Assembly (NCBI GenBank): GCA_016212795.1
Contig: JACRDT010000007.1
Location: 299,627-363,626 of the forward strand
Origin: Elusimicrobiota bacterium
GTDB taxonomy: Bacteria; Elusimicrobiota; Elusimicrobia; UBA1565; UBA9628
Direction: 5' to 3'
DNA length: 64,000 nt
Shown one piece after another: positions 1,869-32,215 of this stretch. Position numbers and translations under genes: made by a program. The stretch's first letter is position 1. Each line of letters opens with the position of its first letter. The notes beneath the pieces were generated by a model. That model searched no databases. It worked only from the letters and a program-made list of their open reading frames with translations, and was not told the DNA's origin.

Positions 1869-4055
1869 TTACAGGTCGCCGGAGAGGACCGGGGTCTGGT
1901 CGCGGTTCTGCCGGCGCGCCGCGTCCTGCACCCTGGGCTTGAGGTACTGGTAGAGCCTGCCGGCGCGGGGCTTGGCCTCCCCTCCCCTGGCCTCCTCGTC
2001 GAGCCCTTTGAGGAAGTAGTAGGTGAAGATGCCGTGCCCCTCCGAGTCGAGCGTGCCCGTGATCTCCTCTCCCGACGCGGCCGCGAAGGCGACCAGCTTC
2101 CCCTTCGGGGCGAGCGCTCCCCCCACCTTCGCGACGAGCGGCCTGGCTCCCTTGGCGAGCACGGAGCGCCCTCCGCCGCCGGAGAAGCATGAGTCGAGCG
2201 CCGCCCAGACCCGCGCGGCCGGCAGGGAGGCGAGCGAGGCGAAGAGCTTGTTGACCGGGTAGGCCGTGGACTTCAGGAACCCCGGGTCCCCGTCCCACGG
2301 GATGAGGTAGGCCTCGCCCGTCTTGGGGTCCGGAGCCCCGTGCCCGGAGAAGTAGAAGAAGACCTCGCCGCCCTCGGGGACGTTCCGCGGGAGCCATTCC
2401 TCGACGAATTTTCGGAGGCCCGAGGCCGTCGCGTGCGGGCCCTTCAGGAGCACGATGTTCCTTTCCGGGAAGCCCAAGGCCAGGAGGTGCTCGCGCACGG
2501 CCTCGGCGTCCCTCTCCGCGAACTCGGCCTCGGGCAGGTCTTTGTACCTCTCCACGCCGACCACGAGCGCGAAGCCCTTGGGGTCCTCCTCGCGCCGATA
2601 CCCGGGCCGGTCCACGTCCGAGGAGAGCTTCTTCTCCGGGACGGACGGCGCGGGCGCTGCGGCCGGCGCGGGGGCCGCGGGCTGCCCCGCGGTCTTCAAG
2701 GAAGAGGCCGCCTTCTGGGCGTCGGCCACCTGCTCCTTGGTCATGAGGGCCTTGAGCCGCTCCATGCCCTGGCGTCCGCCGGCGTTGTCCTGGGCGGCCG
2801 AGAGCAGGTACCACTTGTAGGCCTCGACGTAGTCCTGCACGGCGCCCCAGCCGTTCTCGTAGAGGACGCCCAGCTCGGCCTGGGCCCAGGGGTTGCCCTG
2901 TTCCGCCGACTTGCGATACCACTTGGCCGCCTCGGCGTAGTCCTGCTTGACCCCCCAGCCGTGCTGGTGGCACAGCCCCATCCCTCGTTCGCCCCACTGG
3001 TTGCCCTGGTCCGCGGACTTGCGGTACCACTTGAACGTCGCCGTTGAGTCCTGCTTGACCCCCCACCCGTTCTGGTACATCCAGGCCAGCGCCTGCTGGC
3101 CGTTCCCATTGCCCTGGTCAGCGGAGCGGCTGAGCCACTTGGCCGCCTCGTCGTAGTCCTGCTTGACGCCCAACCCGTTCGAGTAGAGGTGGCCCAAGCT
3201 CGCCTGGGCATCGGCGTTGCCTTGGTCGGCGGACTTGCGCCACCACTTGGCGGCCTCGGCAAGGTCCTGCTTGACTCCCGCGCCGTTGTAGTAGAGGCCG
3301 CCGAGCTGGTTGAGCGAGAAGACATTCCCCTGCTCCGCCGACTTCCTGTACCACTTGACCGCTTCGTCGGCGTCTTTCCGAACGCCCAGGCCCGCTTCAT
3401 GGAGCCAGCCGAGCCCTCCCTGGCCGTGCTGGTTGCCTTGTTCGGCAGAGAGGCGGTACCATTTGGCAGCCTCGACATAGTCCGGCCTTACTCCCTGGCC
3501 GAGTTGGTAGAGGTAGCCGAGCCCGTGCTGGCCGCCGGCGTTGCCCTGGTCGGCGGCCTTGCGGAACCATTTGAGCGCCAGGGCGAAATCCTGCTTCACC
3601 CCCCACCCTGCCTGGTAGGCCCACCCGGCCCCGTTCTGGCCCCAGTCATGACCCCCCTCCGCGGACTTCAGGTACCATCTTCCGGCCTCGGCCAAGTCCT
3701 GCTTGACCCCCCAGCCGTTCTGGTAGAGCCAGCCGAGCCCGTTCATGGCGCCCGCGTTGCCCTGCGCGGCGGACTTCCGGAACAACTTCTCCGCTTGAGC
3801 GTAGTCCTTCCCGACCTCTTGGCCGTTGAGGTAGAGCGTGGCCAAGGTGCCTTGGGCGGCCGCGTCGCCCGCCTCGGCCGCGGGCCGCGCCAAGGAGAGG
3901 GCTTTCTTGTGGTCGCCCTTCAGGTAAGCCTGCCAGGCGTCGTCTCCCTGGCCCGCCCAAGAGGGGCAAGACGACAGCAAGGCCAAGGCGACCGTGGGGA
4001 GCAGCGTTGCCATGGACATGCCATGATGGTAGAACAATCCGCAGGGCCGCCGCAA
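1869..4055 (-). CDS. Sel1-repeat protein with C-terminal caspase-like (peptidase C14) domain, secreted or lipoprotein
   Basis: The C-terminal ~250 aa carry FYFSGHGAP (His) and ALDSCFSGGGG (Cys), a caspase-type His-Cys dyad. Upstream are ~12 Sel1-like 36-aa repeats (A.KWYRKSA.QGN..AQ..LG.LY..G.GV.QD). The N-terminus is signal-like with LLSSC (lipobox-like). The listed start is TTG at 4055; ATG alternatives are at 4019 and 4013. Only 6 nt downstream of the kinase gene stop. Confidence 0.85.
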   Translation of the reverse strand: MRRPCGLFYHHGMSMATLLPTVALALLSSCPSWAGQGDDAWQAYLKGDHKKALSLARPAAEAGDAAAQGTLATLYLNGQEVGKDYAQAEKLFRKSAAQGNAGAMNGLGWLYQNGWGVKQDLAEAGRWYLKSAEGGHDWGQNGAGWAYQAGWGVKQDFALALKWFRKAADQGNAGGQHGLGYLYQLGQGVRPDYVEAAKWYRLSAEQGNQHGQGGLGWLHEAGLGVRKDADEAVKWYRKSAEQGNVFSLNQLGGLYYNGAGVKQDLAEAAKWWRKSADQGNADAQASLGHLYSNGLGVKQDYDEAAKWLSRSADQGNGNGQQALAWMYQNGWGVKQDSTATFKWYRKSADQGNQWGERGMGLCHQHGWGVKQDYAEAAKWYRKSAEQGNPWAQAELGVLYENGWGAVQDYVEAYKWYLLSAAQDNAGGRQGMERLKALMTKEQVADAQKAASSLKTAGQPAAPAPAAAPAPSVPEKKLSSDVDRPGYRREEDPKGFALVVGVERYKDLPEAEFAERDAEAVREHLLALGFPERNIVLLKGPHATASGLRKFVEEWLPRNVPEGGEVFFYFSGHGAPDPKTGEAYLIPWDGDPGFLKSTAYPVNKLFASLASLPAARVWAALDSCFSGGGGRSVLAKGARPLVAKVGGALAPKGKLVAFAAASGEEITGTLDSEGHGIFTYYFLKGLDEEARGGEAKPRAGRLYQYLKPRVQDAARRQNRDQTPVLSGDL

Positions 4056-4061
4056 CGAGCC

Positions 4062-6554
4062 CTAAGCGGCAGCGTCGAGGAAGGCGGCGAGGAACGAGGC
4101 CGCGTCGGCGAACCTCCGCTCCGGACGAGGATTCAAGGCGCGGGCGAAGAACCCGTCGAGTCCGGGAGGGAGCGAGGGGACCTTGCTCGACACGGGGGCG
4201 AACTCGCCCCTGAGCTTGCTCCCGCGGACGTCCGACATCGCGAACGGGAACGCTCCGACCGTGATCTCGTAGGCCGTGAGCCCCAGGCTGCAGAGGTCGG
4301 ACCCGCGCGTGGCGGCCCCGAAGTCCTGCTCAGGCGCCATGTACTGAGGCGTGCCCGCGACGGAGGTCAGGGTGGGGTTCGAGAGGTCCTTCGACTGCCG
4401 CGCGATCCCGAAGTCCATGACCCGCACCGAGCCGTCGTCCGCCAGCATGATGTTCGACGGCTTGAGGTCCCGGTGCACGATCCCCTTGCCGTGCGCCCAA
4501 CCCACGGCCTCGCACGCGGCCTTGAGGATGCGGGAAGCCTCGGGAAGAGGGAACCCGCCCCTGGCCGCCAATATCTCGGCCAGGTTCTTTCCCTCCACGT
4601 AGTCGAACACGAGATAGAGCTCCCCTTCGTCGATGACCGCGTGGATCTCCACGATGTTGGGATGCCTGAGCTTGGCCACCAGCCGCGCCTCGCGAAGGAA
4701 GAGCTCCCGCTCCCCGGGCCTGCCGCAGAGCTCGCTGCGCAGCTGCTTGACCGCGACCTTGCGCTCCAAGGCCTGGTCGAAGGCCTCGTACACCACGCCC
4801 ATGCCGCCCCGGCCCACCTCGCGCGCCACCCGGTAGTTGGAGCCCAAGACCGTCCCGGGAGGCACCGTGCCTTGGGAGGCCAGGCCCGGCAAGGCCGCGG
4901 TCCGGGGAGTGGAGGGCTCCGGGGATGGATCAGCGTCCGCCCCGGCCGGAGAACGCCTGCGCGTGAGCTCCCGCGCAGCTGTCAGGCCGAACAGGATGAG
5001 CGCGGTCGAGGCACCCGCGACCCCAAGACGCATGGCCCAGCGCTTGAGCCCGGGTGCGTCGGAACCAGCGGCCAGGCCGGACGTGGACGAGCCTGACTCC
5101 CCGAGCCTCTTCCTCGCGGACGCGTAGAGAGGCTCGAAGGAAGCGTCGAGCTGAGCCGCTGCCCGATAGTCCTCGAGCGCTTCAGGCATGCGGCCGAGCC
5201 GCTCGGCAGCCTGCGCGCGATAGAGCCTGGCAAGGGCGTTGCTCGGAGCTAGACGCACGGCGGCATCAGCCGCTTCCAAGGCGCCTTGGTAGTCGCCCAT
5301 TTGCTGGAGCGCGTGGGACTTCTCGAGCAGGGCATCCACCGAATCCGGGGAGATGGCCAGGGCCGCTTCCGCGTCCGCAAGAGCCGCCTTGTGGTTCTTG
5401 AACTTGTTGCTGATCTGGGCGCGAAGAGCCAGGGCACGGGCATCCTTGGGAGCGGCGGCGATGGCCCGGGAAGAGTTGATGAGCGCGGCCTCGAGGTCCC
5501 CGAGTTCGGCCTTGCGCAGGGCCTGATGCATCATCTTCTCGGCAGGGCTGGAGGTGGGTGCGGCGGTCCCAGCCTCCGTCTTTGCCACGGCGGAGATTGA
5601 GGGATTACGCTCGTCGACCGAACGCCCCGAAGGAGGCTGGCCAGCCGCCCCGAAGCCCACCCGGTTCAAGTCGAACTTGGAACCTGACGCCGGCAGGGCG
5701 GACCTGAGGTGGGCCACGAGAGCCAGAGCGCGAGGCTCGTTCGCGTCGATGGCAAGGGATTTCTTGGCGCTCGCCAGAGCCTCCTCATTGCGTCCCTGGC
5801 CGGCGAGCGCTGTGGCGAGAAAGGCGTGGGACTCGGCGTCGTCAGGCTTCTGCCCTGTCGAGAGCCTCAGCACGCGCTCAGCCTCCTTCGGTTTCTTGGC
5901 GCCCAGGTACATCTCCCCTGCGCTCTTGAGGACCTCCGGACCGTGTTCACCCACGACAGGGGACAGGTTCTCCAGGTCTTGTCCCGCGGCCTGGTACAGG
6001 GACGAGGGGGTTTCCGAAGACTGCTGCTTCTTGTCCGAAGGGGAGGACCCGGTCAATGCGGGAGGCCCCATGTTGACGGAATCGATGTCTTGGCGCATCG
6101 TCTTGATCGAGTCCCGGGCTTCCTGGATAGATCGGGACACCAGCCATTTGGAATTGCCCAGGAGGGAACCCTCGGGCTCCACGATGTGGAAAGGGATTTT
6201 GTCGAACGCGGCCTCGGCCCGCGAAAAATCGTCCACGGCTCCCTCAAATCTCTTCAGAGCCGTCGCCATCCCCTCCAGATTCTTGGCAGTCTTGGCAGCC
6301 TCGAATTCCTCCGACAGCTCTTTCGTCACTTTGAAACAGTCTTTGACGGATTGATGGTACCGGAAGGCGCACTCGACCTGCACTCTCAATCTGCACGCCT
6401 CCTCCGTGACCAGGACGGACTTCTGACAAGCATCGCCCCCGGCCGAGGCAGGGGAAACGAGGAACAGGAGAAGGGCAAGCAGCACGGAGGAGAGTCTACA
6501 ATAACAGCGGATTCGAGAAGAAGGGTTGAGATCCCCGGGCCAGATGTTTCCCAA
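4062..6554 (-). CDS. Ser/Thr protein kinase with inverted topology: signal peptide, 4-Cys helical + TPR ectodomain, one TM, C-terminal kinase
   Basis: Hanks motifs in the last ~270 aa: GRGGMGVVYEA, VAVKQL, HRDLKPSNIM, DFGIA, GTPQYMAPE. One TM (LGVAGASTALILFGLTAA). TPR-like repeats sit N-terminal to it, with a hydrophobic signal-like N-terminus (VLLALLLFLVSPASA). The listed start is TTG 6554 with no SD, so the start is uncertain. Confidence 0.85.
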   Translation of the reverse strand: MGNIWPGDLNPSSRIRCYCRLSSVLLALLLFLVSPASAGGDACQKSVLVTEEACRLRVQVECAFRYHQSVKDCFKVTKELSEEFEAAKTAKNLEGMATALKRFEGAVDDFSRAEAAFDKIPFHIVEPEGSLLGNSKWLVSRSIQEARDSIKTMRQDIDSVNMGPPALTGSSPSDKKQQSSETPSSLYQAAGQDLENLSPVVGEHGPEVLKSAGEMYLGAKKPKEAERVLRLSTGQKPDDAESHAFLATALAGQGRNEEALASAKKSLAIDANEPRALALVAHLRSALPASGSKFDLNRVGFGAAGQPPSGRSVDERNPSISAVAKTEAGTAAPTSSPAEKMMHQALRKAELGDLEAALINSSRAIAAAPKDARALALRAQISNKFKNHKAALADAEAALAISPDSVDALLEKSHALQQMGDYQGALEAADAAVRLAPSNALARLYRAQAAERLGRMPEALEDYRAAAQLDASFEPLYASARKRLGESGSSTSGLAAGSDAPGLKRWAMRLGVAGASTALILFGLTAARELTRRRSPAGADADPSPEPSTPRTAALPGLASQGTVPPGTVLGSNYRVAREVGRGGMGVVYEAFDQALERKVAVKQLRSELCGRPGERELFLREARLVAKLRHPNIVEIHAVIDEGELYLVFDYVEGKNLAEILAARGGFPLPEASRILKAACEAVGWAHGKGIVHRDLKPSNIMLADDGSVRVMDFGIARQSKDLSNPTLTSVAGTPQYMAPEQDFGAATRGSDLCSLGLTAYEITVGAFPFAMSDVRGSKLRGEFAPVSSKVPSLPPGLDGFFARALNPRPERRFADAASFLAAFLDAAA

Positions 6555-6691
6555 GGATCGCGCCGCGGCCCAATAGCAGTTTCATGGCGTACCCTCCGCC
6601 GGGATTCCAGTGGAGATGTAACAGCGCGGTTACCTGGTTTTACCGGGCCGTGCATTTACTGGCCCCCCGATCTCTGTTAACCTTTTCAAGT

Positions 6692-7063
6692 ATGAGGAAC
6701 CCCGTCACGATCGCGGCGGCGTTAGCCGTGGCCCTCCTGCTGGACGGGTGCACGTCGGTGGGCCGCGTCGGTCTCCTGACGCGCGGCTCAGCCGACCCGG
6801 GTGGACTGCTCAAGGGCCAGCGGCACTTCCACGAGGTCGGGCCCGCCGAGGCCCGGTCTTGCCGCTTCCTCGCCCTGGGGCTCATCCCAGCGGGCAACGG
6901 CGACATCCAGGCCGCCGCGGACAAGGCTCTGGCCAAGTCCGGGGGCGACGCGCTCATCAACGTGACGACCGCCAACAGCCTCTACGGGTTCATCCCCGTC
7001 TACAACGTCCTGAGCGTCGGCTGCACCACGGTCAAGGGGACGGCCATCGCCTTCAACGACTAG
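6692..7063 (+). CDS. small lipoprotein, TRL-like
   Basis: Internal ATG at 6692, in frame with the listed ORF, gives MRNPVTIAAALAVALLLDGC (lipobox LLDGC). The C-terminal pattern CRFLALGLIPAGNGDIQAAADKALAKSGGDALINV...CTTVKGTAI resembles the TRL-like lipoprotein family as I remember it. Confidence 0.6.
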   Translation: MRNPVTIAAALAVALLLDGCTSVGRVGLLTRGSADPGGLLKGQRHFHEVGPAEARSCRFLALGLIPAGNGDIQAAADKALAKSGGDALINVTTANSLYGFIPVYNVLSVGCTTVKGTAIAFND

Positions 7064-7090: not shown

Positions 7091-8257
7091 CTACCGGATC
7101 CAGGACACCTGGCCTATGTTGCGCAGGAGGGTGGCGGCCTTGACCCAGGCATGCCCGCACTGGCAGGGCCAATCGCCGTTGCCGTCGCACCCCGTGCCCC
7201 AGGAGTTCCTGATCAAGTACTCCTTGACGCCCGCTTTCTGCCTGCTTCCCACGATCAGCGCCGCGTGGTAGCCGCATTCCTTCTTGAACACCTCGCCCCC
7301 CACCGTGCCGGGGTCGCCGAACTTCTCCATGGTGTCCGCCTTGGCGGCGGCGCCCTGCGAGAGGATGGTCGAGCAGAAGTCGATGCCCGTCGGGACGCCG
7401 CCCTTGAGGTTCTCGTCCACCGTCCTCTCGAAGGTCCCGGCTTGCTGGCTCCAATGAGGGACGCACTTGGCGGCGTCGGGCGCGCACTGCAGGTCCTTGC
7501 CCGCCTGGAGGAACGGCTGGGCCGAGACCGAGATGGCCTCTTTGACGGACGTGCCCGCGGTCCAGAAGTCCCACTCCTTCTTCTGCAGGCTCCACAGGCA
7601 CACGCCGGTCAGGTCGTCGAGCTCGCCCGGCGAGCCCGTCTCGTAGGTCGTCTCCAGGAACTTCCGGCAGACCTTCTCCATCGCCGCGGCCCTCCTGGCC
7701 TGAGGCAGCGAGGCGTCCGTCTTGAGCTTGCGGTTGAGGGTGAGGATCTTCTCGATGGCCTGGTGGAGCTGGCGGTCGCCGTGCAGCCCCTTGAGCTTGA
7801 TGCCGTCGCCGTGGATCCCCACGCCGACGGGCTTGTGGCCGTCGAGGCCGAACCCGACCCCGTCGTTCAGGAAGGCCTTCATGAGCGCGAGCTTGACCGT
7901 CTCCTTGTCGCCGCGGCACCGAGGCGTGATCTTCTTCCAGAGGCCGAGCAGGTCGTCGGTCTCGTGCCCCTCGTCGAACCCCTTGGCGAGCTGGATGCCG
8001 AAGTAGATCGGCGAGGTGAACTTATCCCCGGCCGAGCCCTCCCGCAGCAGGCAGGCGTCGATCATCTGCGAGGTCATGTAGGACCAGCACCATTCGTGCT
8101 CGCCCTGGTCGTAGACCGGGATGGACTGCAGCTTGTGGCCCGGCTTGAGCTTGTAGATGGAGCCGTCGAAGAACTTCCCCCCGTAGCCGCAGGCCGAGGC
8201 CCCGGCCCGCGACGACAGGCAAGACACGGTCAGGACGAGCAGCAGGACGTTTCTCAT
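7091..8257 (-). CDS. secreted papain-like cysteine peptidase
   Basis: Trimmed from the 805-aa run-on ORF to ATG 8257 (MRNVLLLVLTVSCLSSRAGASA signal peptide; GGAGG 8 nt upstream). Catalytic-looking motifs are QGEHEWCWSYM (Gln...Cys-Trp), GYHAALIVG (His) and IRNSWG (Asn-Ser-Trp). Confidence 0.7.
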   Translation of the reverse strand: MRNVLLLVLTVSCLSSRAGASACGYGGKFFDGSIYKLKPGHKLQSIPVYDQGEHEWCWSYMTSQMIDACLLREGSAGDKFTSPIYFGIQLAKGFDEGHETDDLLGLWKKITPRCRGDKETVKLALMKAFLNDGVGFGLDGHKPVGVGIHGDGIKLKGLHGDRQLHQAIEKILTLNRKLKTDASLPQARRAAAMEKVCRKFLETTYETGSPGELDDLTGVCLWSLQKKEWDFWTAGTSVKEAISVSAQPFLQAGKDLQCAPDAAKCVPHWSQQAGTFERTVDENLKGGVPTGIDFCSTILSQGAAAKADTMEKFGDPGTVGGEVFKKECGYHAALIVGSRQKAGVKEYLIRNSWGTGCDGNGDWPCQCGHAWVKAATLLRNIGQVSWIR

Positions 8258-24612: not shown

Positions 24613-24668
24613 CAGGGATCTCCTTCCCACGGGGAGGCGAGTAGCTGAGGGGGCGAGTGCTGTTCTAT
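24613..24668 (-). repeat. degenerate tandem copy B2 of the same element (no start codon; supplies AAGGAG to B1)
   Basis: The minus strand reads AGAACAGCACTCGCCCCCTCAGCTACTCGCCTCCCCGTGGGAAGGAGATCCCTG. It aligns with the element core (..CCCCC..GCTACTCGCC.CCCCG.GGG..) but the 3' arm has decayed to GGGAAGGAGAT, which is a perfect SD 8 nt before the B1 ATG. Confidence 0.5.
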
Positions 24669-24678
24669 TGGTATCCTC

Positions 24679-24864
24679 TCAGCCTTTGTTCTTGTCGATG
24701 TCCTCGGGGCGCTTCTCCGGGGGCGCGTCTTCCTTCAACCCCTGCTTGAACGCCTTGATGGACTTGCCAAGGCTCTGGCCGATCTCGGGGAGCCGCTTGG
24801 CCCCGAAGACGAGCAGCGCGATCGCGGCGACGGCCAGCCATTCTCCCCAGCCGGGGTTGAACAT
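24679..24864 (-). CDS. tatA: twin-arginine translocase subunit TatA/E
   Basis: 61 aa: MFNPGWGEWLAVAAIALLVFGAKRLPEIGQSLGKSIKAFKQGLKED, the canonical TatA TM plus amphipathic helix. Confidence 0.9.
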   Translation of the reverse strand: MFNPGWGEWLAVAAIALLVFGAKRLPEIGQSLGKSIKAFKQGLKEDAPPEKRPEDIDKNKG

Positions 24865-24870
24865 CGGGTA

Positions 24871-25278
24871 TCACCTCTCCGTGGGAGATGATACCATTTC
24901 CCCGGCCGGCCGGTTCGGCCGGGCGCCCCAAGGCCAGTCGAAACGGACCGTGAACTGGAACGCCGCGTGGGCGCCGATGCCGACGCCGTCGGCCATGAGG
25001 TCGCTGCCCGACGGGGCGGCGTCCACCACGAACTCCTTGAAGACCCCGGCCGCGGCCACGGCCAGCGAGCTGGCTAGGGTGGCTTTGGGCTTGGACCAGC
25101 CCCACCACCGCAGGAGCTCGGTCCCGGCCAGGCTGCCCGCGAACGCCGCGCCCAGGTGCAGGTTGGTGTCGTGCCTGCCCCAGGCCAGGCGCGTGTCTTC
25201 CAGGGCGGCCGCAAGGCCGGGGCGCAGGAGGGCCAGGGCGATGAGCAGCGCGGCGCAGGCGTGTCTTCTCCCCGGCAT
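24871..25278 (-). CDS. small membrane/lipoprotein-like protein, YfiM (DUF2279)-like
   Basis: Start taken at ATG 25278 (MPGRRHACAALLIALALL). The pattern W.R.DT.LH..AAFAGSLAG...KEFVVDAAPSGSDLMADGVG resembles E. coli YfiM as I remember it. Confidence 0.45.
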   Translation of the reverse strand: MPGRRHACAALLIALALLRPGLAAALEDTRLAWGRHDTNLHLGAAFAGSLAGTELLRWWGWSKPKATLASSLAVAAAGVFKEFVVDAAPSGSDLMADGVGIGAHAAFQFTVRFDWPWGARPNRPAGEMVSSPTER

Positions 25279-25381
25279 GCAGGCGAGATTATACCGCATC
25301 GGGGAAGTCGTCGCTTTGTTGCGCGGCGCTTTCCCGGACTGCTATTGTTTCCCGGTGAGGCCGGGGTATCGGGCGTGGGGC

Positions 25382-27910
25382 ATGACGGGCGCAGCCGCCG
25401 CCGGCATCGCGCTTTCCCTGCCGGGTCTTCTGGCGGCGGACGGGCCGCCGTGCGGTTTCGACACGAAGGCGTTCGGCGCCGACTGCCTCGGCGATGAGGA
25501 GCGCGCCGGGCTGCCGGAGGATAGGCTCGTCAAGTGGGTGGAGTCCTGCTCGTCGAGCGTCGACGCGTCGAGGATGGCCTGCCACTCGGCCATCGAAAAG
25601 CTCGAGGCCGACTTCTCCGGCCCCCTGTCCGACGAGCAGCGCCGGGAGCTCGCCGACAAGATCGCGGCACACAAACGCACGGCCGACGAGCTCAGCGACG
25701 CCATCCAGCATTACCTCAGTCGGGAAGACACTCAAAAGGCGCTGGAAAGGCTTGAGAGCGGACACGTAACGCTCACGAACCAGACTCGACGCCTCGTCAC
25801 GGATACCGAGGCGGTATGGGACGCGGCGGATTTCGTGTCCGGCAAGGTCTCCGAATGGCTGCAGGGGCGCTCCGACAAGGGCCCGCGGGCCGAGAACACC
25901 GGCCTTCCGGTCTCCGGCGCAGGCCGGGTCGAGCCAGGGAAGGACCCTCCGTTGAAGACGGAGCCGGCCGCGCCCGACCCGGAGGAGCTCCGCCGCCTGG
26001 CGGGCAAGGAACAGCGCCTCGCCAAGAGCGGGGGCTCGCCCGAGGACCTGGCGGACTCTTGGAGGCTGCTGGGCCGGCAGTACGAGCACGCGGGCAGCAC
26101 GGAGGCGGCGAGCCGCGCCGTGGACCGCTCCATCGCGCTCTACCCCGGCAATCCCGACGCGTACGTGACCCGCAGCGGCGTGAGGCTCGCGGGCGGCGAC
26201 CGCGCCGGCGCCTTGAGGGATGCCAAGAAAGCCTTGGAACTCGACCCGGGCCATCCCAGGGCGCGCAAGCTGGAGGCTGCCCTGACCTCCGCGCTCGGCG
26301 GCGGGCTCGACGACAAACTCAGGCTCCGCCAGCCGGTCTTCGACTCCTCGGCCGGGCAGCCGGCGGCGGGGGCCGCGGGCGGCGTGGGCGGCGCGGGGGA
26401 TTGGCGCCGCCAGGGCGGCGGGGCGGGGCGGCCGAAGAAGGGGCCGCCGAGCCCGGCGGAACTGGCCGCGGAGGCGGCCAGGCGCAAGCTGCGCGCCGGC
26501 GACTTCACGGGCGCGATCGTGGACCTGACCCGCGCCATCCAGCTCGACCCGCGCAACCCCGCGTTCTGGCGCATGCGCGCCGAGGCGTCCAACCGCTCCG
26601 GCCATCACCGGGCCGCGGCGGAGGACGCGGACCGCGCCTTGAGCCTGGACCCGGACGATCCCCTGGCGCTGCTGGAGCGAGCGTACGCTCGTCTGGAGCA
26701 GGGCGACCCGGCGGGGGCGCTGGCGGACGCCAGGCGCGCCGCGGAGCTCTCGCCCGGGAACGCCCTGGCCCACCTCTACATGGCCATGGCGAAGGAGCGC
26801 CTGGGGGACGCCGCGGGAGCCGCCGCGGACTACGAGGCCGCGGCGAAGCTCGACGCGGCCCTGCGGGCGGTGGCGGACGAGGCCATGGCTCGGATGGGCG
26901 CCAAGTCCCCCCGGCCCGCGGCGCAGGGGCTCTGGCCCGGGCTGCGCCGCAGGGGGCCGATCCTCCCGCTGCTGGCGGTCGCGACGCTGCTGATCGGATT
27001 TCCGTTGACGCGCAAGCTGGCGGGGTGGACCACGCGGTCCCAGCCCGCGGAGCCTCCCCTCGAGCCCAGCCTGGCGACCTTGGCGGAACGCCCGGCGATC
27101 CTGGCTCCCGGCGCCATGGTGGGGAGCAACCTGTGCGTCGTCCGGGAGCTCGGGCGCGGCGGCATGGGAGTGGTCTACGAGGCCTTCGACACGGCCCTGC
27201 ACCGCTGCGTGGCGGTCAAGCAGCTGCGCCGAAACCTCTACCCGGCCCCCCAGGACTACGAGCGTTTCCTCCGGGAGGCGCGCGTGGTCGCCAAGATGAG
27301 GCACCCCAACATCGCGCGGATCCAATCGGTGGTGGAGGCGGAGGGAGACGCGTTCCTGGTGTTCGACCTGGTGCGCGGACGGACGCTGGACGCCGTCGTG
27401 AAGGAGAAGGGGCGGCTGGGCGCCGCCGAGGCGGGCCGGATCGTGGGCGAGGTCTGCGCCGCGCTCGAGCATGCCCACGGCCACGATGTGATCCACCGGG
27501 ACCTCAAGCCCGCCAACGTCATGCTCGACGACGGGGGCCGCTGCCTGGTGATGGACTTCGGCATCGCCCACCAGTCCCGCTCGGCGGGCAAGCAGACCTG
27601 GACCGCGGCGTGGGGCACGCCGCCGTACATGGCGCCGGAGCAGGAGCTCGGCAGGGTGTCGCTGGAGTCCGACCTGTTCGCCGTGGGCGTGATGGCCTAC
27701 GAGCTGCTGACGGGAAGCCTGCCGTTCAAGGGGCCGAACTTCCTGGCGGACAAGATGGAGCGCCGCTGGGCGCCCGTCACCCGGCTGGACCCCGGCCTGC
27801 CCGCGGCCCTCGACGCGTTCTTCGCCAAGGCGCTGGAGCCCGAGCCGGCCGCGCGCTTCAGGGGCGCGCGCGAACTCGGAGCGTCCTTCGCTGGAGCCGC
27901 GGGCGCGTAG
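25382..27910 (+). CDS. Ser/Thr protein kinase, paralog of 4062..6554 (4-Cys helical + TPR ectodomain, one TM, C-terminal kinase)
   Basis: Trimmed from the 1080-aa ORF, whose 5' part overlaps tatA and the YfiM-like gene on the other strand. Motifs: GRGGMGVVYEA, VAVKQL, HRDLKPANVM, DFGIAH, GTPPYMAPE. TM is ILPLLAVATLLIGFPL. The TPR block aligns with the first kinase. Start is uncertain: ATG 25382 chosen, 25277 possible. Confidence 0.8.
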   Translation: MTGAAAAGIALSLPGLLAADGPPCGFDTKAFGADCLGDEERAGLPEDRLVKWVESCSSSVDASRMACHSAIEKLEADFSGPLSDEQRRELADKIAAHKRTADELSDAIQHYLSREDTQKALERLESGHVTLTNQTRRLVTDTEAVWDAADFVSGKVSEWLQGRSDKGPRAENTGLPVSGAGRVEPGKDPPLKTEPAAPDPEELRRLAGKEQRLAKSGGSPEDLADSWRLLGRQYEHAGSTEAASRAVDRSIALYPGNPDAYVTRSGVRLAGGDRAGALRDAKKALELDPGHPRARKLEAALTSALGGGLDDKLRLRQPVFDSSAGQPAAGAAGGVGGAGDWRRQGGGAGRPKKGPPSPAELAAEAARRKLRAGDFTGAIVDLTRAIQLDPRNPAFWRMRAEASNRSGHHRAAAEDADRALSLDPDDPLALLERAYARLEQGDPAGALADARRAAELSPGNALAHLYMAMAKERLGDAAGAAADYEAAAKLDAALRAVADEAMARMGAKSPRPAAQGLWPGLRRRGPILPLLAVATLLIGFPLTRKLAGWTTRSQPAEPPLEPSLATLAERPAILAPGAMVGSNLCVVRELGRGGMGVVYEAFDTALHRCVAVKQLRRNLYPAPQDYERFLREARVVAKMRHPNIARIQSVVEAEGDAFLVFDLVRGRTLDAVVKEKGRLGAAEAGRIVGEVCAALEHAHGHDVIHRDLKPANVMLDDGGRCLVMDFGIAHQSRSAGKQTWTAAWGTPPYMAPEQELGRVSLESDLFAVGVMAYELLTGSLPFKGPNFLADKMERRWAPVTRLDPGLPAALDAFFAKALEPEPAARFRGARELGASFAGAAGA

Positions 27911-27961: not shown

Positions 27962-30667
27962 TCACGGGCGGAGGAGGAGGTCCTCCCCGGTCTCCGAGCC
28001 GATGGTCATCTGGGGCGTCTGCTCGCGGTTGTCGCGCCGGGCCCGGTCCTTCACGTTGGGCAGCAGGAAGTCGTAGAGCGACTTCACCGTCACCTTCCCG
28101 TCGGCATCCTTGGCCGCGCCGTTGAGCCCCTTGAGCAGGTAGTACGTGAACAAGCCGTGGCCCTGGTCCGGCGCGGTCCCCGAGATCTCGTCGGACTGGG
28201 AGGCGCTGAAGGTGACCGTCTTCCCGGTGCCTGCCACCCCCAGCTCCAGCTTGCTGACCAAAGGCCGGGTCCCGGGCGCCAGGACCGAGCGGCCTCCGGC
28301 GCCGGAGAAGCAGGAATCCAGCGCGACGATCACCCGCCGGACCTTGAGCCCGTTGAGCGTGTCGTAGAGGCGCTTCACGGGGTAGGCGGTCTCGGCCAGG
28401 TATTTCGGGTCCCCGTCGGACGGCAGCAGGTAGGCCTGGCCGCTGACCGGGTCCGGGGCCCCGTGGCCGGAGTAATAGAAGAAGACGGTCGACTTCTCGT
28501 TGGCGTTGCGCGGGAGCCAGGTCTCGATGTGCTTGAGCAGGCCGGTCTTGGTGGCCTTGGCGCCCGTCAGGAAGACGATGTTGCGCTCGGGCACGCCCAG
28601 GCCGCGCAGGTGCTCCCGGACGGCCTCGGCGTCGCGCTCCGCGAACTGTGCGTCGGGGAGGTCGGAGTACTTCTCCACCCCGGCCACGATGGCCAGCTGG
28701 TCCGGGTCCTCCGGGACGGCGTACGCGGGCCGGTCCACCTCGGTGGAATACGACACCTGGACCGGGGCCTTGTCCTCGACCTTGCTCACGGTGGCCTTCC
28801 GGATGGCCTCGTCCATCATGCGCTGCATCTCGTCCTTGTCCACGGACGGGGAGGAGGGCGTCGAGCCGCGCTTGGGCTTCTCCAGGCCCTCCTGGTAGCG
28901 GACCAGGAGGCGCACGATGTCCCCCTGGCCCTGGACCTCGGCCATGAGCGCGGCGGTCTGCTTTTTGCGGTTCTTGATCTTCATGTCGGCCCCGTGCAGG
29001 AGGAGAGCCTTGACCAGGTCCACCCGGCCGTCGCGCGCGGCCAGCATGAGCGCCGTCAGGCCCAGGGTCTTCTCCTTGGCGTCGATCTCCTTGCCGGAGG
29101 CCAGGACGAGCCCGACCAGGTCCGCGTCCCCGTTGACCACCGCGTGCATGAGCGGGGTCCAGCCGGATTCCTCCGTCCCCGCCGTCCGGGTCCCGCCGCG
29201 GATGAGCTCCTTGGCGATGTCGTTCTTCTTGAGCGAGATGGCGTGCACGAGTGCGGTCCGGCCCCGCGCGTCCTTCCGGTTGACGTCGGCCCCCTTGGCC
29301 AGCAGGGCGCGGACGATCTCGAGGTCCCCGTGTTGGACCGCGAGCATCAGGGGCGTCAGCCCTTCCTGGTACGTCCCCCCCTGGTCGGCGCCTCGCCGCG
29401 CCAGCTCGAGCGCGATCTCGCCCTTGCTCCCCAGCAGCGCCTGCATGAGCGCGGTGCGGCCTGCCTCGTCGCGCGCGCCGCTGTCGGCCTTCTTCTCCAG
29501 CATGAGCCCGGCCAGCTCGGGGTCGCCGCGCTCGACCGCGAGCATCAGGGTCGTGCGCCCTTTCTCCGAGCCTCCGAGCTCGGCCCCGCCCCGCACCAGC
29601 TCCTTGGCGGCGTCGATGCGGTTGTTGAGGAGGGCCCACATCACCGCGGTCCGGCCGTCGGCGTCCTTGGCCTTGGTGTCGGGCTTGCGCTCCATCGCGG
29701 TCTTGACCACGGCGGCGTCGCAGTGCCGCACCGCCATCATCAGGGTCGTCTCCTTGGTGTCGCCCAACCCCGAGATGTCCGCGCCGCCGCGCAGGAGCTC
29801 GAGGGAGACCGCCTTGTCGCCGGCCAAAAGAGCCTGCATGAGCGCCGTGTGCTTCCTGGCATCCCGGCGCTCGGTGTCGGCCCCTTTCTCCAGCAGGATC
29901 CTCACGATCGCCGGGTCCGAGCGCTTGACCGCGTACATGAGGGCGGTGCGGTCCTGCCCGTCGCGCCGCGCGGCGTCGGCTCCCCGGGCGAGCATCTCCT
30001 GCAGGACGGGGGGTTCCGCGAGCTCGGCGGCCAGCATCAAGGCGTCCCGGCCGCCGTCGGTCTCCCCTCCGAGGTCGGCGCGGTTTTTCAAGAGCAGCAG
30101 GGCGAGGTCCCCTTTCTTCTGGAGGATGGCCTGCATCAGGGGGGTGGCCCCGCCCCTGTCCTTGGCCCTGGTGTCGGAGCGCCTCTCCAGCATGGCGCGT
30201 ACCAGGTCCGCGTCGCCGAGCTCGATGGCGAGGTGGAGCGTGCTGCGGCCGTCCTTGTATTTGCCGTTGACCTCGGCCGCCGAGGCGGCCAGGAGCTTGG
30301 CCGTGGCGAGCAGGTCAGGCTCGGGGCGGGCGGCTCGCGCCAGCGCCCGCATGAAGACGGTCTGGGACTCGGCGTCCTTGGCGTTGAGCTTGGCCCCCCT
30401 GTCGAGCAGCAGCCGGAAGACTTGGGCGTGGGAGGCGGGCGGGGCGGCCCAGACGAGTTGGTGGAGAGGCGGCAGGCCGCCGGCGTTCCTGGCGTTCGGG
30501 TCCGCGCCCGCCTCCAGGAGACGTTTGACCTCGTCGACCTGGCCATCGGCGACGGCGCGGGGAAGCAGGTCCTTGGCCGGCTTGGCGGGCTTGGCGGCGA
30601 CGGCGGGCGGGATCGCCCCCGCGAGCAACAGCGGCACGATGAAGAGGACCGGGCGCATCGATGGCAT
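27962..30667 (-). CDS. ankyrin-repeat protein with C-terminal caspase-like (peptidase C14) domain, secreted
   Basis: Signal peptide MPSMRPVLFIVPLLLAGAIPPAVAA. A long array of 33-aa ankyrin-like repeats (G.T.LM.A...G....V..LL..GAD....D). The C-terminal domain has FYYSGHGAP and ALDSCFSGAGG and is clearly paralogous to the 1869..4055 C-terminus (VDRP.Y...EDP....V.GVE.Y.DLP.A.FAERDAEAVREHL). Confidence 0.85.
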   Translation of the reverse strand: MPSMRPVLFIVPLLLAGAIPPAVAAKPAKPAKDLLPRAVADGQVDEVKRLLEAGADPNARNAGGLPPLHQLVWAAPPASHAQVFRLLLDRGAKLNAKDAESQTVFMRALARAARPEPDLLATAKLLAASAAEVNGKYKDGRSTLHLAIELGDADLVRAMLERRSDTRAKDRGGATPLMQAILQKKGDLALLLLKNRADLGGETDGGRDALMLAAELAEPPVLQEMLARGADAARRDGQDRTALMYAVKRSDPAIVRILLEKGADTERRDARKHTALMQALLAGDKAVSLELLRGGADISGLGDTKETTLMMAVRHCDAAVVKTAMERKPDTKAKDADGRTAVMWALLNNRIDAAKELVRGGAELGGSEKGRTTLMLAVERGDPELAGLMLEKKADSGARDEAGRTALMQALLGSKGEIALELARRGADQGGTYQEGLTPLMLAVQHGDLEIVRALLAKGADVNRKDARGRTALVHAISLKKNDIAKELIRGGTRTAGTEESGWTPLMHAVVNGDADLVGLVLASGKEIDAKEKTLGLTALMLAARDGRVDLVKALLLHGADMKIKNRKKQTAALMAEVQGQGDIVRLLVRYQEGLEKPKRGSTPSSPSVDKDEMQRMMDEAIRKATVSKVEDKAPVQVSYSTEVDRPAYAVPEDPDQLAIVAGVEKYSDLPDAQFAERDAEAVREHLRGLGVPERNIVFLTGAKATKTGLLKHIETWLPRNANEKSTVFFYYSGHGAPDPVSGQAYLLPSDGDPKYLAETAYPVKRLYDTLNGLKVRRVIVALDSCFSGAGGRSVLAPGTRPLVSKLELGVAGTGKTVTFSASQSDEISGTAPDQGHGLFTYYLLKGLNGAAKDADGKVTVKSLYDFLLPNVKDRARRDNREQTPQMTIGSETGEDLLLRP

Positions 30668-31375: not shown

Positions 31376-32215
31376 ATGAATCGGACGATCGACCTGATAC
31401 TCCTGACGCTCGGCTGTCTATCCATCGGTGCGGGAACATACGTCATCGCCGCCGATTCCCCGCTCCTAGAGGGCATCGGCGGGATGGGCGTCGTGTTCAA
31501 GGGGTGGGACCGGGAGCTCGAGCGGGACGTCGCAATCAAGCGGATGCATGGCGCCATCGCCAAGGACGCGAAGGCCCGGGACCAGTTCCTCCGGGAGGCC
31601 CGCACCGTCGCCAAGCTCAACCACCCCTACATCGTGGCCATCCACGACATCGTCCGGTCCGCAGACGACCTCTACCTCGTCTTTGAGCACGTCGACGGGG
31701 AGACCATTTCGGACATCCTGGTCAGCAGCAAAAAGCTCGAACCCAAGGAGTGCGTCCGCATCCTGCGCTTCGTCTGCGAGGCCCTGGCTCACGCACACGA
31801 GAACGGCGTCATCCATCGCGACCTCAAGCCCGCCAACATCATGATGAGCAGGCGCGGCTACGTGAAGGTCATGGATTTCGGCATCGCCAGGCACCTCTCG
31901 GCCGGCCACAAGTTGGGAGAGGGGACCATAGCGGGCACCCTGCCCTACATGGCCCCCGAACAGCACGACGGGAAGTCCTCGGCGCAGTCGGATGTCTACT
32001 CCCTGGGCGTCGTGGCCTACGAGTTCCTCATGGGCGAGCGCCCATTCTCGGGCGTCCACTGCCACAGGGACAAGGAGGCGGAACGCTTCCCTCCCCTGTC
32101 CAAGAACCTTCCTGAAGGGCTCTCCCGCCTAGTCATCGCCTGCCTCAAGAAGGACCCGGCGGCCAGGCCCCAGGGGATGAGCCGGGTGATGGCCGGGCTG
32201 GTGGCGGCCCGCTGA
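31376..32215 (+). CDS. short Ser/Thr protein kinase: N-terminal TM + kinase domain only
   Basis: LILLTLGCLSIGAGTYVIAA, then GIGGMGVVFKG, VAIKRM, HRDLKPANIM, DFGIAR, GTLPYMAPE. It has no ectodomain and a shortened N-lobe lead-in. Confidence 0.75.
   Translation: MNRTIDLILLTLGCLSIGAGTYVIAADSPLLEGIGGMGVVFKGWDRELERDVAIKRMHGAIAKDAKARDQFLREARTVAKLNHPYIVAIHDIVRSADDLYLVFEHVDGETISDILVSSKKLEPKECVRILRFVCEALAHAHENGVIHRDLKPANIMMSRRGYVKVMDFGIARHLSAGHKLGEGTIAGTLPYMAPEQHDGKSSAQSDVYSLGVVAYEFLMGERPFSGVHCHRDKEAERFPPLSKNLPEGLSRLVIACLKKDPAARPQGMSRVMAGLVAAR

Follow-up and report, generated by a model that had tools for sequence, protein, structure and literature searches.

A gene for a receptor-type Ser/Thr kinase (4062–6554, minus strand) and a gene for a predicted exported, Sel1-repeat caspase-like protein of peptidase family C14 (1869–4055, minus strand) lie next to each other in the window, by which we mean the whole 64,000-nucleotide stretch of DNA analysed here (C42:299627–363626, from a 4.18-Mb, 50-contig, ~90%-complete Elusimicrobiota metagenome-assembled genome, MAG). 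The two products are probably independent envelope proteins, each a member of an expanded family, that became neighbours by chance and do not form a dedicated kinase–protease module. The juxtaposition is attributed to chance because related genomes do not keep the two genes together, and it is most likely recent and lineage-specific. The genes themselves are real: an initial annotation, made from the letters of the window, had described both on the minus strand at these coordinates, and their open reading frames (ORFs), Pfam matches and GC content at third codon positions (GC3; 0.82 for the kinase, 0.91 for the caspase, in the range typical of real genes in this DNA of ~70% GC) bear out that description and the architecture given with it. 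The closest relatives of proteins from this genome are all encoded in Elusimicrobiota MAGs from groundwater, soil or lake.

Conservation of the kinase–caspase pairing

The initial annotation had taken the pairing to be functional, a view that would be refuted by a lack of enrichment across related genomes. The comparison centred on the caspase covered 79 loci from other species that carry the closest relatives of its C14 domain (44–64% identity), with flanks of up to 10 kb and 1.15 Mb of DNA altogether. None of the 79 has an adjacent kinase gene, and three kinase domains occur in the entire set, against ~4.9 expected from the mean kinase density of the clade; tandem arrays of two to three caspase genes are common among these loci. 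The three full-length Sel1-C14 orthologues (59, 57 and 51% identity) stand in three unrelated contexts, all without a kinase. Seen from the other gene, neither of the two closest orthologues of the kinase (57 and 47% identical across their full length) has a C14 or Sel1 gene within 8–9 kb or any synteny with the window. Across the seven relatives for which complete lists are available, a kinase gene is found within 5 kb of 2 among 94 C14 genes, where ~4.6 would be expected, and the genomes G016 and G018 hold at least ten genes with the tetratricopeptide repeat (TPR)–transmembrane (TM)–kinase layout and no C14 gene at all. Enrichment across related genomes is absent from these counts (0/79, 0/3, 0/2 and 2/94), which go against a functional pairing.

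The pairing had also been said to recur within the window. At the second site, a TPR-TM-kinase paralogue (24668–27910, plus strand; recognized by Pfam and alignment, its true start probably well inside the ORF) is indeed found next to a predicted exported ankyrin-repeat C14 protein with a signal-like N-terminus (27962–30667, minus strand; Pfam). These two genes are convergent, however, and are not co-transcribed, and the recurrence does not rise above chance: the source genome has four C14 genes that are no more than 5 kb from a kinase gene, with 1.8 expected (P=0.10), and two that are no more than 1.5 kb away, with 0.7 expected (P=0.15). The four adjacencies represent three different gene orders. 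The kinase precedes the caspase on the same strand in the pair at 1869–6554, the genes are convergent in the second pair of the window and in the pair on contig C33, and on C22 the caspase precedes the kinase. The four kinases that neighbour a caspase are dispersed over the kinase tree, which calls for four independent changes, and the kinase of the second pair is sister to an unpaired paralogue, C42_209940 (support 98/94). Duplication of an ancestral kinase–caspase pair was considered as the origin of these adjacencies and was rejected on the grounds of the kinase tree and the differing gene orientations. Overall, relatives do not conserve the kinase–caspase pairing, nor is it demonstrably enriched; what would mark a conserved gene pair, namely retention or enrichment in relatives and descent from an ancestral pair, was not found.

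Architecture and topology of the kinase

The kinase gene, assigned from its ORF, GC3, and Pfam and NCBIfam matches, encodes 830 amino acids in its longest ORF, which starts at a TTG. Residues 1–39 (6438–6554) comprise a basic n-region and a hydrophobic core at residues 21–39 (hydropathy 2.0), followed by SPASA/GG, and from hydropathy and homologues they would constitute a signal peptide or a signal anchor. A helical cap follows at residues 43–118 (6201–6428), with four Cys residues spaced C-x10-C-x7-C-x10-C. In the AlphaFold 2 (AF2) model, Cys43, Cys54, Cys62 and Cys73 are located on long helices (residues 41–90 and 94–118) predicted at low to moderate confidence in terms of the local distance difference test (pLDDT). 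The TPR region is divided into two blocks. Block 1 (residues 206–286; 5697–5939) contains a TPR_19 match at residues 217–283 and helices with pLDDT 78–93, and block 2 (residues 337–488; 5091–5546) contains TPR_16, TPR_2 and TPR_1 matches at residues 386–471 and reaches pLDDT 84–97. The linkers at residues 158–203 and 288–334 are disordered in the model, as is a 40-residue juxtamembrane segment between the TM helix and the kinase domain. The single TM helix is placed at residues 513–532 (4959–5018) by hydropathy and as a helix in the AF2 model, and is followed by RELTRRR; the hydrophobic stretch spans approximately residues 507–532, with a hydropathy of 1.47 in the 19-residue window at 507–525, and the paralogues have a stronger TM segment at the corresponding place.

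The catalytic domain occupies residues 574–830 (4065–4835), with a Pkinase (PF00069) match of 157 bits at residues 574–777. All motifs that define a Hanks-type Ser/Thr kinase can be read in the sequence (GRGGMG, VAVK, HRDLKPSN, DFG, and APE in the form MAPE), and with this complete set the kinase should be active. The domain does not qualify as a PknB/Stk1 PASTA kinase according to model NF033483: it scores 230 bits where 450 are required, the match is confined to the kinase domain, PASTA repeats are absent, and the domain order is reversed. A single TM helix ahead of a C-terminal catalytic domain, a signal-like N-terminus, a four-Cys region and TPRs had all been noted in the initial annotation, and Pfam, hydropathy, the AF2 model and the orthologues agree with it on each.

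The choice of start codon decides whether the chain would begin with a signal peptide. The gene call of the database record (P0123) is 755 residues long, starts at an internal GTG and lacks the signal peptide. Were this the true product, the kinase would not be a receptor, and would either have its TPR region in the cytoplasm and its catalytic domain outside the cell, or be a peripheral protein. There is no Shine-Dalgarno sequence before the TTG at 6554, and the positive-inside rule is uninformative (46 versus 46 Lys/Arg residues over 16 paralogues), both of which would fit such a reading. The 75 residues upstream of the GTG, however, encode the signal peptide together with the four Cys residues, and both features are kept in the orthologues L111 and L112 from two other genera, with identical Cys spacing in L111 and a four-Cys variant in L112. 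The protein-homologue search returned at least two full-length relatives, and the homologues P0124 and P0125 likewise begin with a signal peptide. Conservation of both features among the orthologues supports the 830-residue ORF over the 755-residue call. A kinase domain requires cytoplasmic ATP for catalysis, and outside the cell it would have none; moreover, every member of the family that was checked follows the same plan of signal peptide, TM helix and kinase domain. A non-receptor kinase is thereby left very improbable. Two hydrophobic segments bracket the four-Cys/TPR region, and together with the conservation of the four Cys residues and the need for ATP they support a predicted type I (N-out/C-in) topology, in which the TPR sensor would be periplasmic and the kinase domain cytoplasmic.

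One further orthologue, the closest by its kinase domain (L110, G061:C112; 75% identity in that domain), carries an in-frame TAA within the second TPR block, and is either a pseudogene or the product of an assembly error.

Architecture of the Sel1-caspase protein

The second gene encodes 728 amino acids if translation starts at TTG 4055, with ATG alternatives at 4019 and 4013. Residues 1–34 (3954–4055) resemble a signal peptide, as do nearly all N-termini read among the paralogues, and would end either in a lipobox (L-S-S-C30) or in a signal peptidase I site (SWA/GQ). The Sel1-like repeat (SLR) solenoid extends over residues 36–454 (2694–3950) and is supported by Pfam, the AF2 model and Foldseek. 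PF08238 matches ten repeats with 274 bits, and with two capping half-repeats in addition the figure of ~12 repeats given in the initial annotation is a fair one. The solenoid is modelled as helix pairs with pLDDT above 90 (mean of the whole protein, 85), and its Foldseek matches are periplasmic or secreted SLR proteins (4bwr, 6ok3, 8sxq, 6deh and 1ouv), with probability 1.0 and target-normalised TM-scores of 0.67–0.88. A Pro/Ala-rich linker (residues 455–489; 2589–2693), disordered at residues 455–476 with pLDDT below 50, connects the solenoid to the protease domain. Long Sel1 arrays very like this one occur in other phyla in direct fusion with domains of the Pkinase, trypsin-like (PF13365/PF00089), FGE-sulfatase, AAA+ and TIR types; the array would seem to be a promiscuous scaffold that can be swapped.

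The Peptidase_C14 domain (PF00656; residues 493–725; 1881–2579) scores 46.9 bits against a gathering cut-off of 21.4. Its fold is that of a caspase in the AF2 model (pLDDT 75–93), and Foldseek matches it to 3bij, the bacterial caspase-like protein GSU0716 (target-normalised TM-score 0.61), and to MALT1. Among solved structures, the sequence-profile search ranks MALT1 and metacaspases nearest, at ~1e-5. The catalytic dyad, which had been reported as intact from its SGHG and DSCFSG motifs, consists of His572 (FSGHG; nucleotides 2340–2342) and Cys623 (LDSCFSG; 2187–2189), and is invariant in nine paralogues and 13 orthologues. Directly after the catalytic Cys, the loop at residues 624–647 (GGGGRSVLAKGARPLV) is disordered in the AF2 model, conserved in sequence, and contains Arg and Lys residues. 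Its position corresponds to that of the intersubunit linker of caspases, and by analogy it may be an autoprocessing linker and a candidate cleavage site. The Asp residue two positions before Cys623 is as in metacaspases, and the protease would presumably share their specificity for Arg or Lys at P1. The protein is not an EACC1-associated caspase as defined by NF047832, for which it scores 69.4 bits against a cut-off of 140; it is also predicted to be exported and not cytoplasmic.

Expansion of both families in the genome and clade

Both families are large in the source genome. The C14 loci number 17 by tblastn, and 20 with three further Pfam matches; nearly all of the 17 N-termini that were read are signal-like, and the scaffolds vary (Sel1, ankyrin, WD40 and others). 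Kinases number 35–36, about half of them with a TM helix 20–50 residues ahead of a C-terminal kinase domain, and the kinase described here is one of about a dozen paralogues. The window is itself crowded, with three kinase and two C14 genes inside 30 kb in addition to further exported proteases. A kinase gene near the second pair (31376–32215, plus strand) encodes 279 residues comprising a TM helix and a kinase domain (Pkinase, 188 bits) with no ectodomain.

The domain order of the kinase, which the initial annotation had singled out as a reversal of the usual layout, is as described, yet it is not special to this locus. Of 78 genomes from the same Elusimicrobiota family, 77 have the collinear TPR-TM-kinase layout, often in tandem arrays. 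It extends to further families of the class, whereas the matches seen outside the class, elsewhere in the phylum, are to the kinase domain only. The C-terminal-kinase topology is a clade-wide common layout. Tandem arrays of two to three TPR-TM-kinase paralogues are seen, for example, at G000 C33:274300–282000, G077:C2, G062:C21 and G005:C14. On the caspase side, genomes of 2–4 Mb in the clade carry up to ~20 C14 copies. The closest relatives of the caspase domain (L001–L079), from Elusimicrobiota, Nitrospirota and Desulfobacterota, are mostly 430–550 residues long, with an N-terminal hydrophobic segment and an unannotated N-terminal region of 150–250 residues, and are frequently encoded by two to three tandem C14 genes.

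Organisation of the locus

The kinase and caspase genes form an isolated same-strand pair, with a divergent gene upstream and a convergent ORF (ending at 1866) downstream. Since this two-gene arrangement is isolated, the genes are probably co-transcribed, as the initial annotation had proposed. The 6-nt gap cited there between the kinase stop (4062) and the caspase start applies to the longest ORF (TTG 4055), and widens to 42–48 nt if translation begins at ATG 4019 or 4013. Between the genes, at 4039–4055, there is a weak terminator-like hairpin that does not exceed chance expectation, and a scan of the locus for sigma-70 promoters found nothing. Upstream of the kinase, an ORF of 29 codons (6498–6585, minus strand; read from the sequence) overlaps the kinase start out of frame. 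It has a Shine-Dalgarno sequence that fits the consensus perfectly, GGAGGG, 6 nt ahead of its ATG, and terminates 13 nt before a GTG in the kinase frame; this ORF may indicate translational coupling or reinitiation.

The divergent gene that bounds the two-gene unit (6692–7063, plus strand) encodes a lipoprotein of 123 residues and is single-copy in the source genome. It was considered as a conserved partner of the kinase, and was rejected, as none of its orthologues, which occur in ~14 genomes of the family, has a kinase gene next to it. In four Nitrospirota loci, a profile search with the lipoprotein family placed one or two copies directly upstream of the C14 gene, and in two other loci it placed them close to such a gene (loci L064, L068, L071, L072, L034/L162 and L058). 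There may be an association between small lipoproteins and caspases, although it is inconsistent in Elusimicrobiota. Next along the window, the gene at 7091–8257 (minus strand) encodes a predicted exported protein of 388 residues with a signal/lipobox sequence (LTVSC), preceded by the Shine-Dalgarno sequence GGGAGGA. Papain-like motifs can be recognized in it (QGEHEWCWSY, GYHAALIVG and IRNSWG), with a Pfam Peptidase_C1 match that falls under the cut-off (E=0.006). The GC content of this region is 0.65, below that of the flanking DNA, and the gene is the third exported cysteine-protease-like gene in 7 kb.

Proposed functions and alternative explanations

For two independent envelope proteins, the following functions can be envisaged. 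The signal peptide or anchor of the kinase would place the four-Cys cap, which could form disulfides, and the two TPR blocks in the periplasm, and the single TM helix would bring the chain back to the cytoplasm, where the kinase domain would phosphorylate its targets. The trigger is likely to be a periplasmic protein or peptide ligand that binds in the TPR groove. The product of the second gene would be an exported, possibly lipid-anchored clan-CD cysteine protease of family C14, with the Sel1 solenoid serving as a scaffold that binds a substrate or partner of the protease. The earlier suggestion that both repeat scaffolds share one compartment is plausible on the basis of the hydrophobic segments that bracket the kinase ectodomain, the conserved signal peptide and Cys residues of the kinase, and the signal-like N-termini of the caspases.

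Several observations weigh against a chance juxtaposition of these two proteins. The number of C14 genes in the neighbourhood of TPR-kinases in this one genome, four, is roughly double the expectation. Of the best 29 kinase loci in other genomes, two have a C14 gene within 1.5 kb, where ~0.2–0.3 would be expected, which is compatible with a weak, recurrent association. A tight same-strand pair (6–48 nt) that is isolated by divergent and convergent neighbours usually means co-expression. In addition, the export and topology predicted for both proteins are derived by heuristics, and very close relatives of the source genome may be missing from the sets that were searched. A co-regulated pair without direct interaction would account for the spacing, and in such an operon the envelope kinase and the protease would be made under the same condition, for example during envelope remodelling or nutrient scavenging, with adjacency resulting from the accumulation of two expanded families in the same plastic regions. 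The density of both families and of exported proteases in the window, including the papain-like gene at 7091–8257, would fit, and so would the orthologue contexts, which are all different and suggest mobile or plastic loci. The terminator-like hairpin between the genes speaks against co-regulation, within the limits of its chance-level score, and we regard co-regulation without interaction as rather unlikely.

A stronger form of coupling is a lineage-specific module, assembled independently several times, in which binding or cleavage of the TPR ectodomain, or of a ligand shared with it, by the Sel1-caspase in the periplasm would switch the cytoplasmic kinase. The bicistronic arrangement and the prediction of both scaffolds in one compartment would allow it, the disordered ectodomain linkers could be accessible to a protease according to the AF2 model, and the four adjacencies in the source genome, with sporadic ones in G012, G002 and G051, could be seen as traces of repeated assembly. 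The periplasmic caspase-like protein DdvA of Myxococcus xanthus (see below) provides a precedent. Against these points, orthologues of neither gene keep the pairing, the relatives and the 79 caspase loci show no enrichment while that in the source genome is not significant, the adjacent kinases are unrelated to each other and occur in three gene orders, and the kinase family thrives in genomes that have no C14 gene. Such a module is, in our judgement, unlikely. A direct protease–kinase circuit is possible at a low probability, and there is a similarly slim chance that in the source genome, and perhaps in unsampled close relatives, exported caspases with repeat scaffolds came to lie beside TPR receptor kinases through repeated, independent recruitment, and clip or dock on the disordered linkers of the ectodomain to give a proteolysis-gated Ser/Thr receptor kinase. 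The reading of two independent envelope proteins remains the probable one.

Relation to characterised systems

Sel1 is among the four domains most commonly fused to prokaryotic metacaspases, and was found in ~6% of those surveyed (Asplund-Samuelsson et al. 2012, PMC3501461). In the same survey, N-terminal TM helices or signal peptides are present in many of the proteins, and some genomes have multi-copy expansions; no metacaspases were found in Elusimicrobia, which were represented only by gut isolates at that time. The protein described here resembles the metacaspase and orthocaspase fusions with Sel1, TPR or WD40 in combining a C14 His-Cys dyad with interaction repeats. Unlike the surveyed set, it belongs to an Elusimicrobiota clade with up to ~20 copies, and nearly all N-termini read in the source genome are export-like. 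The solved structures nearest to it, GSU0716 (3bij) and MALT1, are distant. With respect to the solenoid, similarities are noted with Escherichia coli c5321/EsiB (4bwr), Legionella LpnE/LceB, Helicobacter HcpC, AlgK, ExoR and MotX, in which a signal peptide precedes an SLR solenoid that acts as a binding scaffold in the envelope; none of these has a protease domain, in contrast to the caspase protein of the window.

Planctomycetota and Myxobacteria commonly have membrane kinases whose TPR or WD40 arrays are periplasmic, with the kinase domain at the N-terminus (PMC11032199; PMC1262709). The kinase described here shares with these planctomycetal enzymes and with kinases of the PknB/PrkC/StkP type a single membrane pass, cytoplasmic catalysis, an extracytoplasmic repeat sensor, lineage expansions and tandem arrays, if the predicted topology is correct. 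The order of the domains differs. Kinases of the PknB/PrkC/StkP type have an N-terminal kinase domain, a TM helix and a C-terminal sensor (type II), whereas the present kinase is permuted to signal peptide, sensor, TM helix and C-terminal kinase domain (type I, as in eukaryotic receptor kinases) and lacks PASTA repeats.

The initial annotation knew of no characterised example of a periplasmic caspase-like protease wired to a transmembrane kinase. For transmembrane signalling by a caspase-like domain of the periplasm, DdvA is a characterised precedent, a periplasmic TPR-CHAT anti-sigma factor for which proteolysis has been proposed to drive transmembrane signalling (PMC11506125). As predicted for the protein described here, DdvA has a clan-CD caspase-like domain and a repeat scaffold in the periplasm. 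It differs in that its caspase-like domain is of the CHAT and not the C14 family, and is fused to the transmembrane signalling protein, whereas here the protease is separately encoded. The output is also different, since DdvA leads to a sigma factor of extracytoplasmic function (ECF) released by regulated intramembrane proteolysis and not to a kinase, and the pairing of DdvA with DdvS is conserved, unlike the kinase–caspase pairing of the window.

Implications

If the pairing were functional, it would link proteolysis in the periplasm to Ser/Thr phosphorylation in a manner new for bacteria, and a proteolysis-gated receptor kinase would be a bacterial analogue of the control of eukaryotic receptor kinases by ectodomain shedding; the comparative evidence argues against it. 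What emerges at the level of the families is specific neither to this locus nor wholly without precedent, as Sel1-metacaspase fusions and kinases with periplasmic TPRs are already in the literature. In a whole class of uncultured Elusimicrobiota, Hanks-type kinases with a receptor-kinase-like arrangement (predicted N-out, with a C-terminal kinase domain) are a common layout, and in this clade the C14 proteases, whose binding scaffolds are interchangeable, have likewise multiplied, with nearly all of those read in the source genome looking exported.

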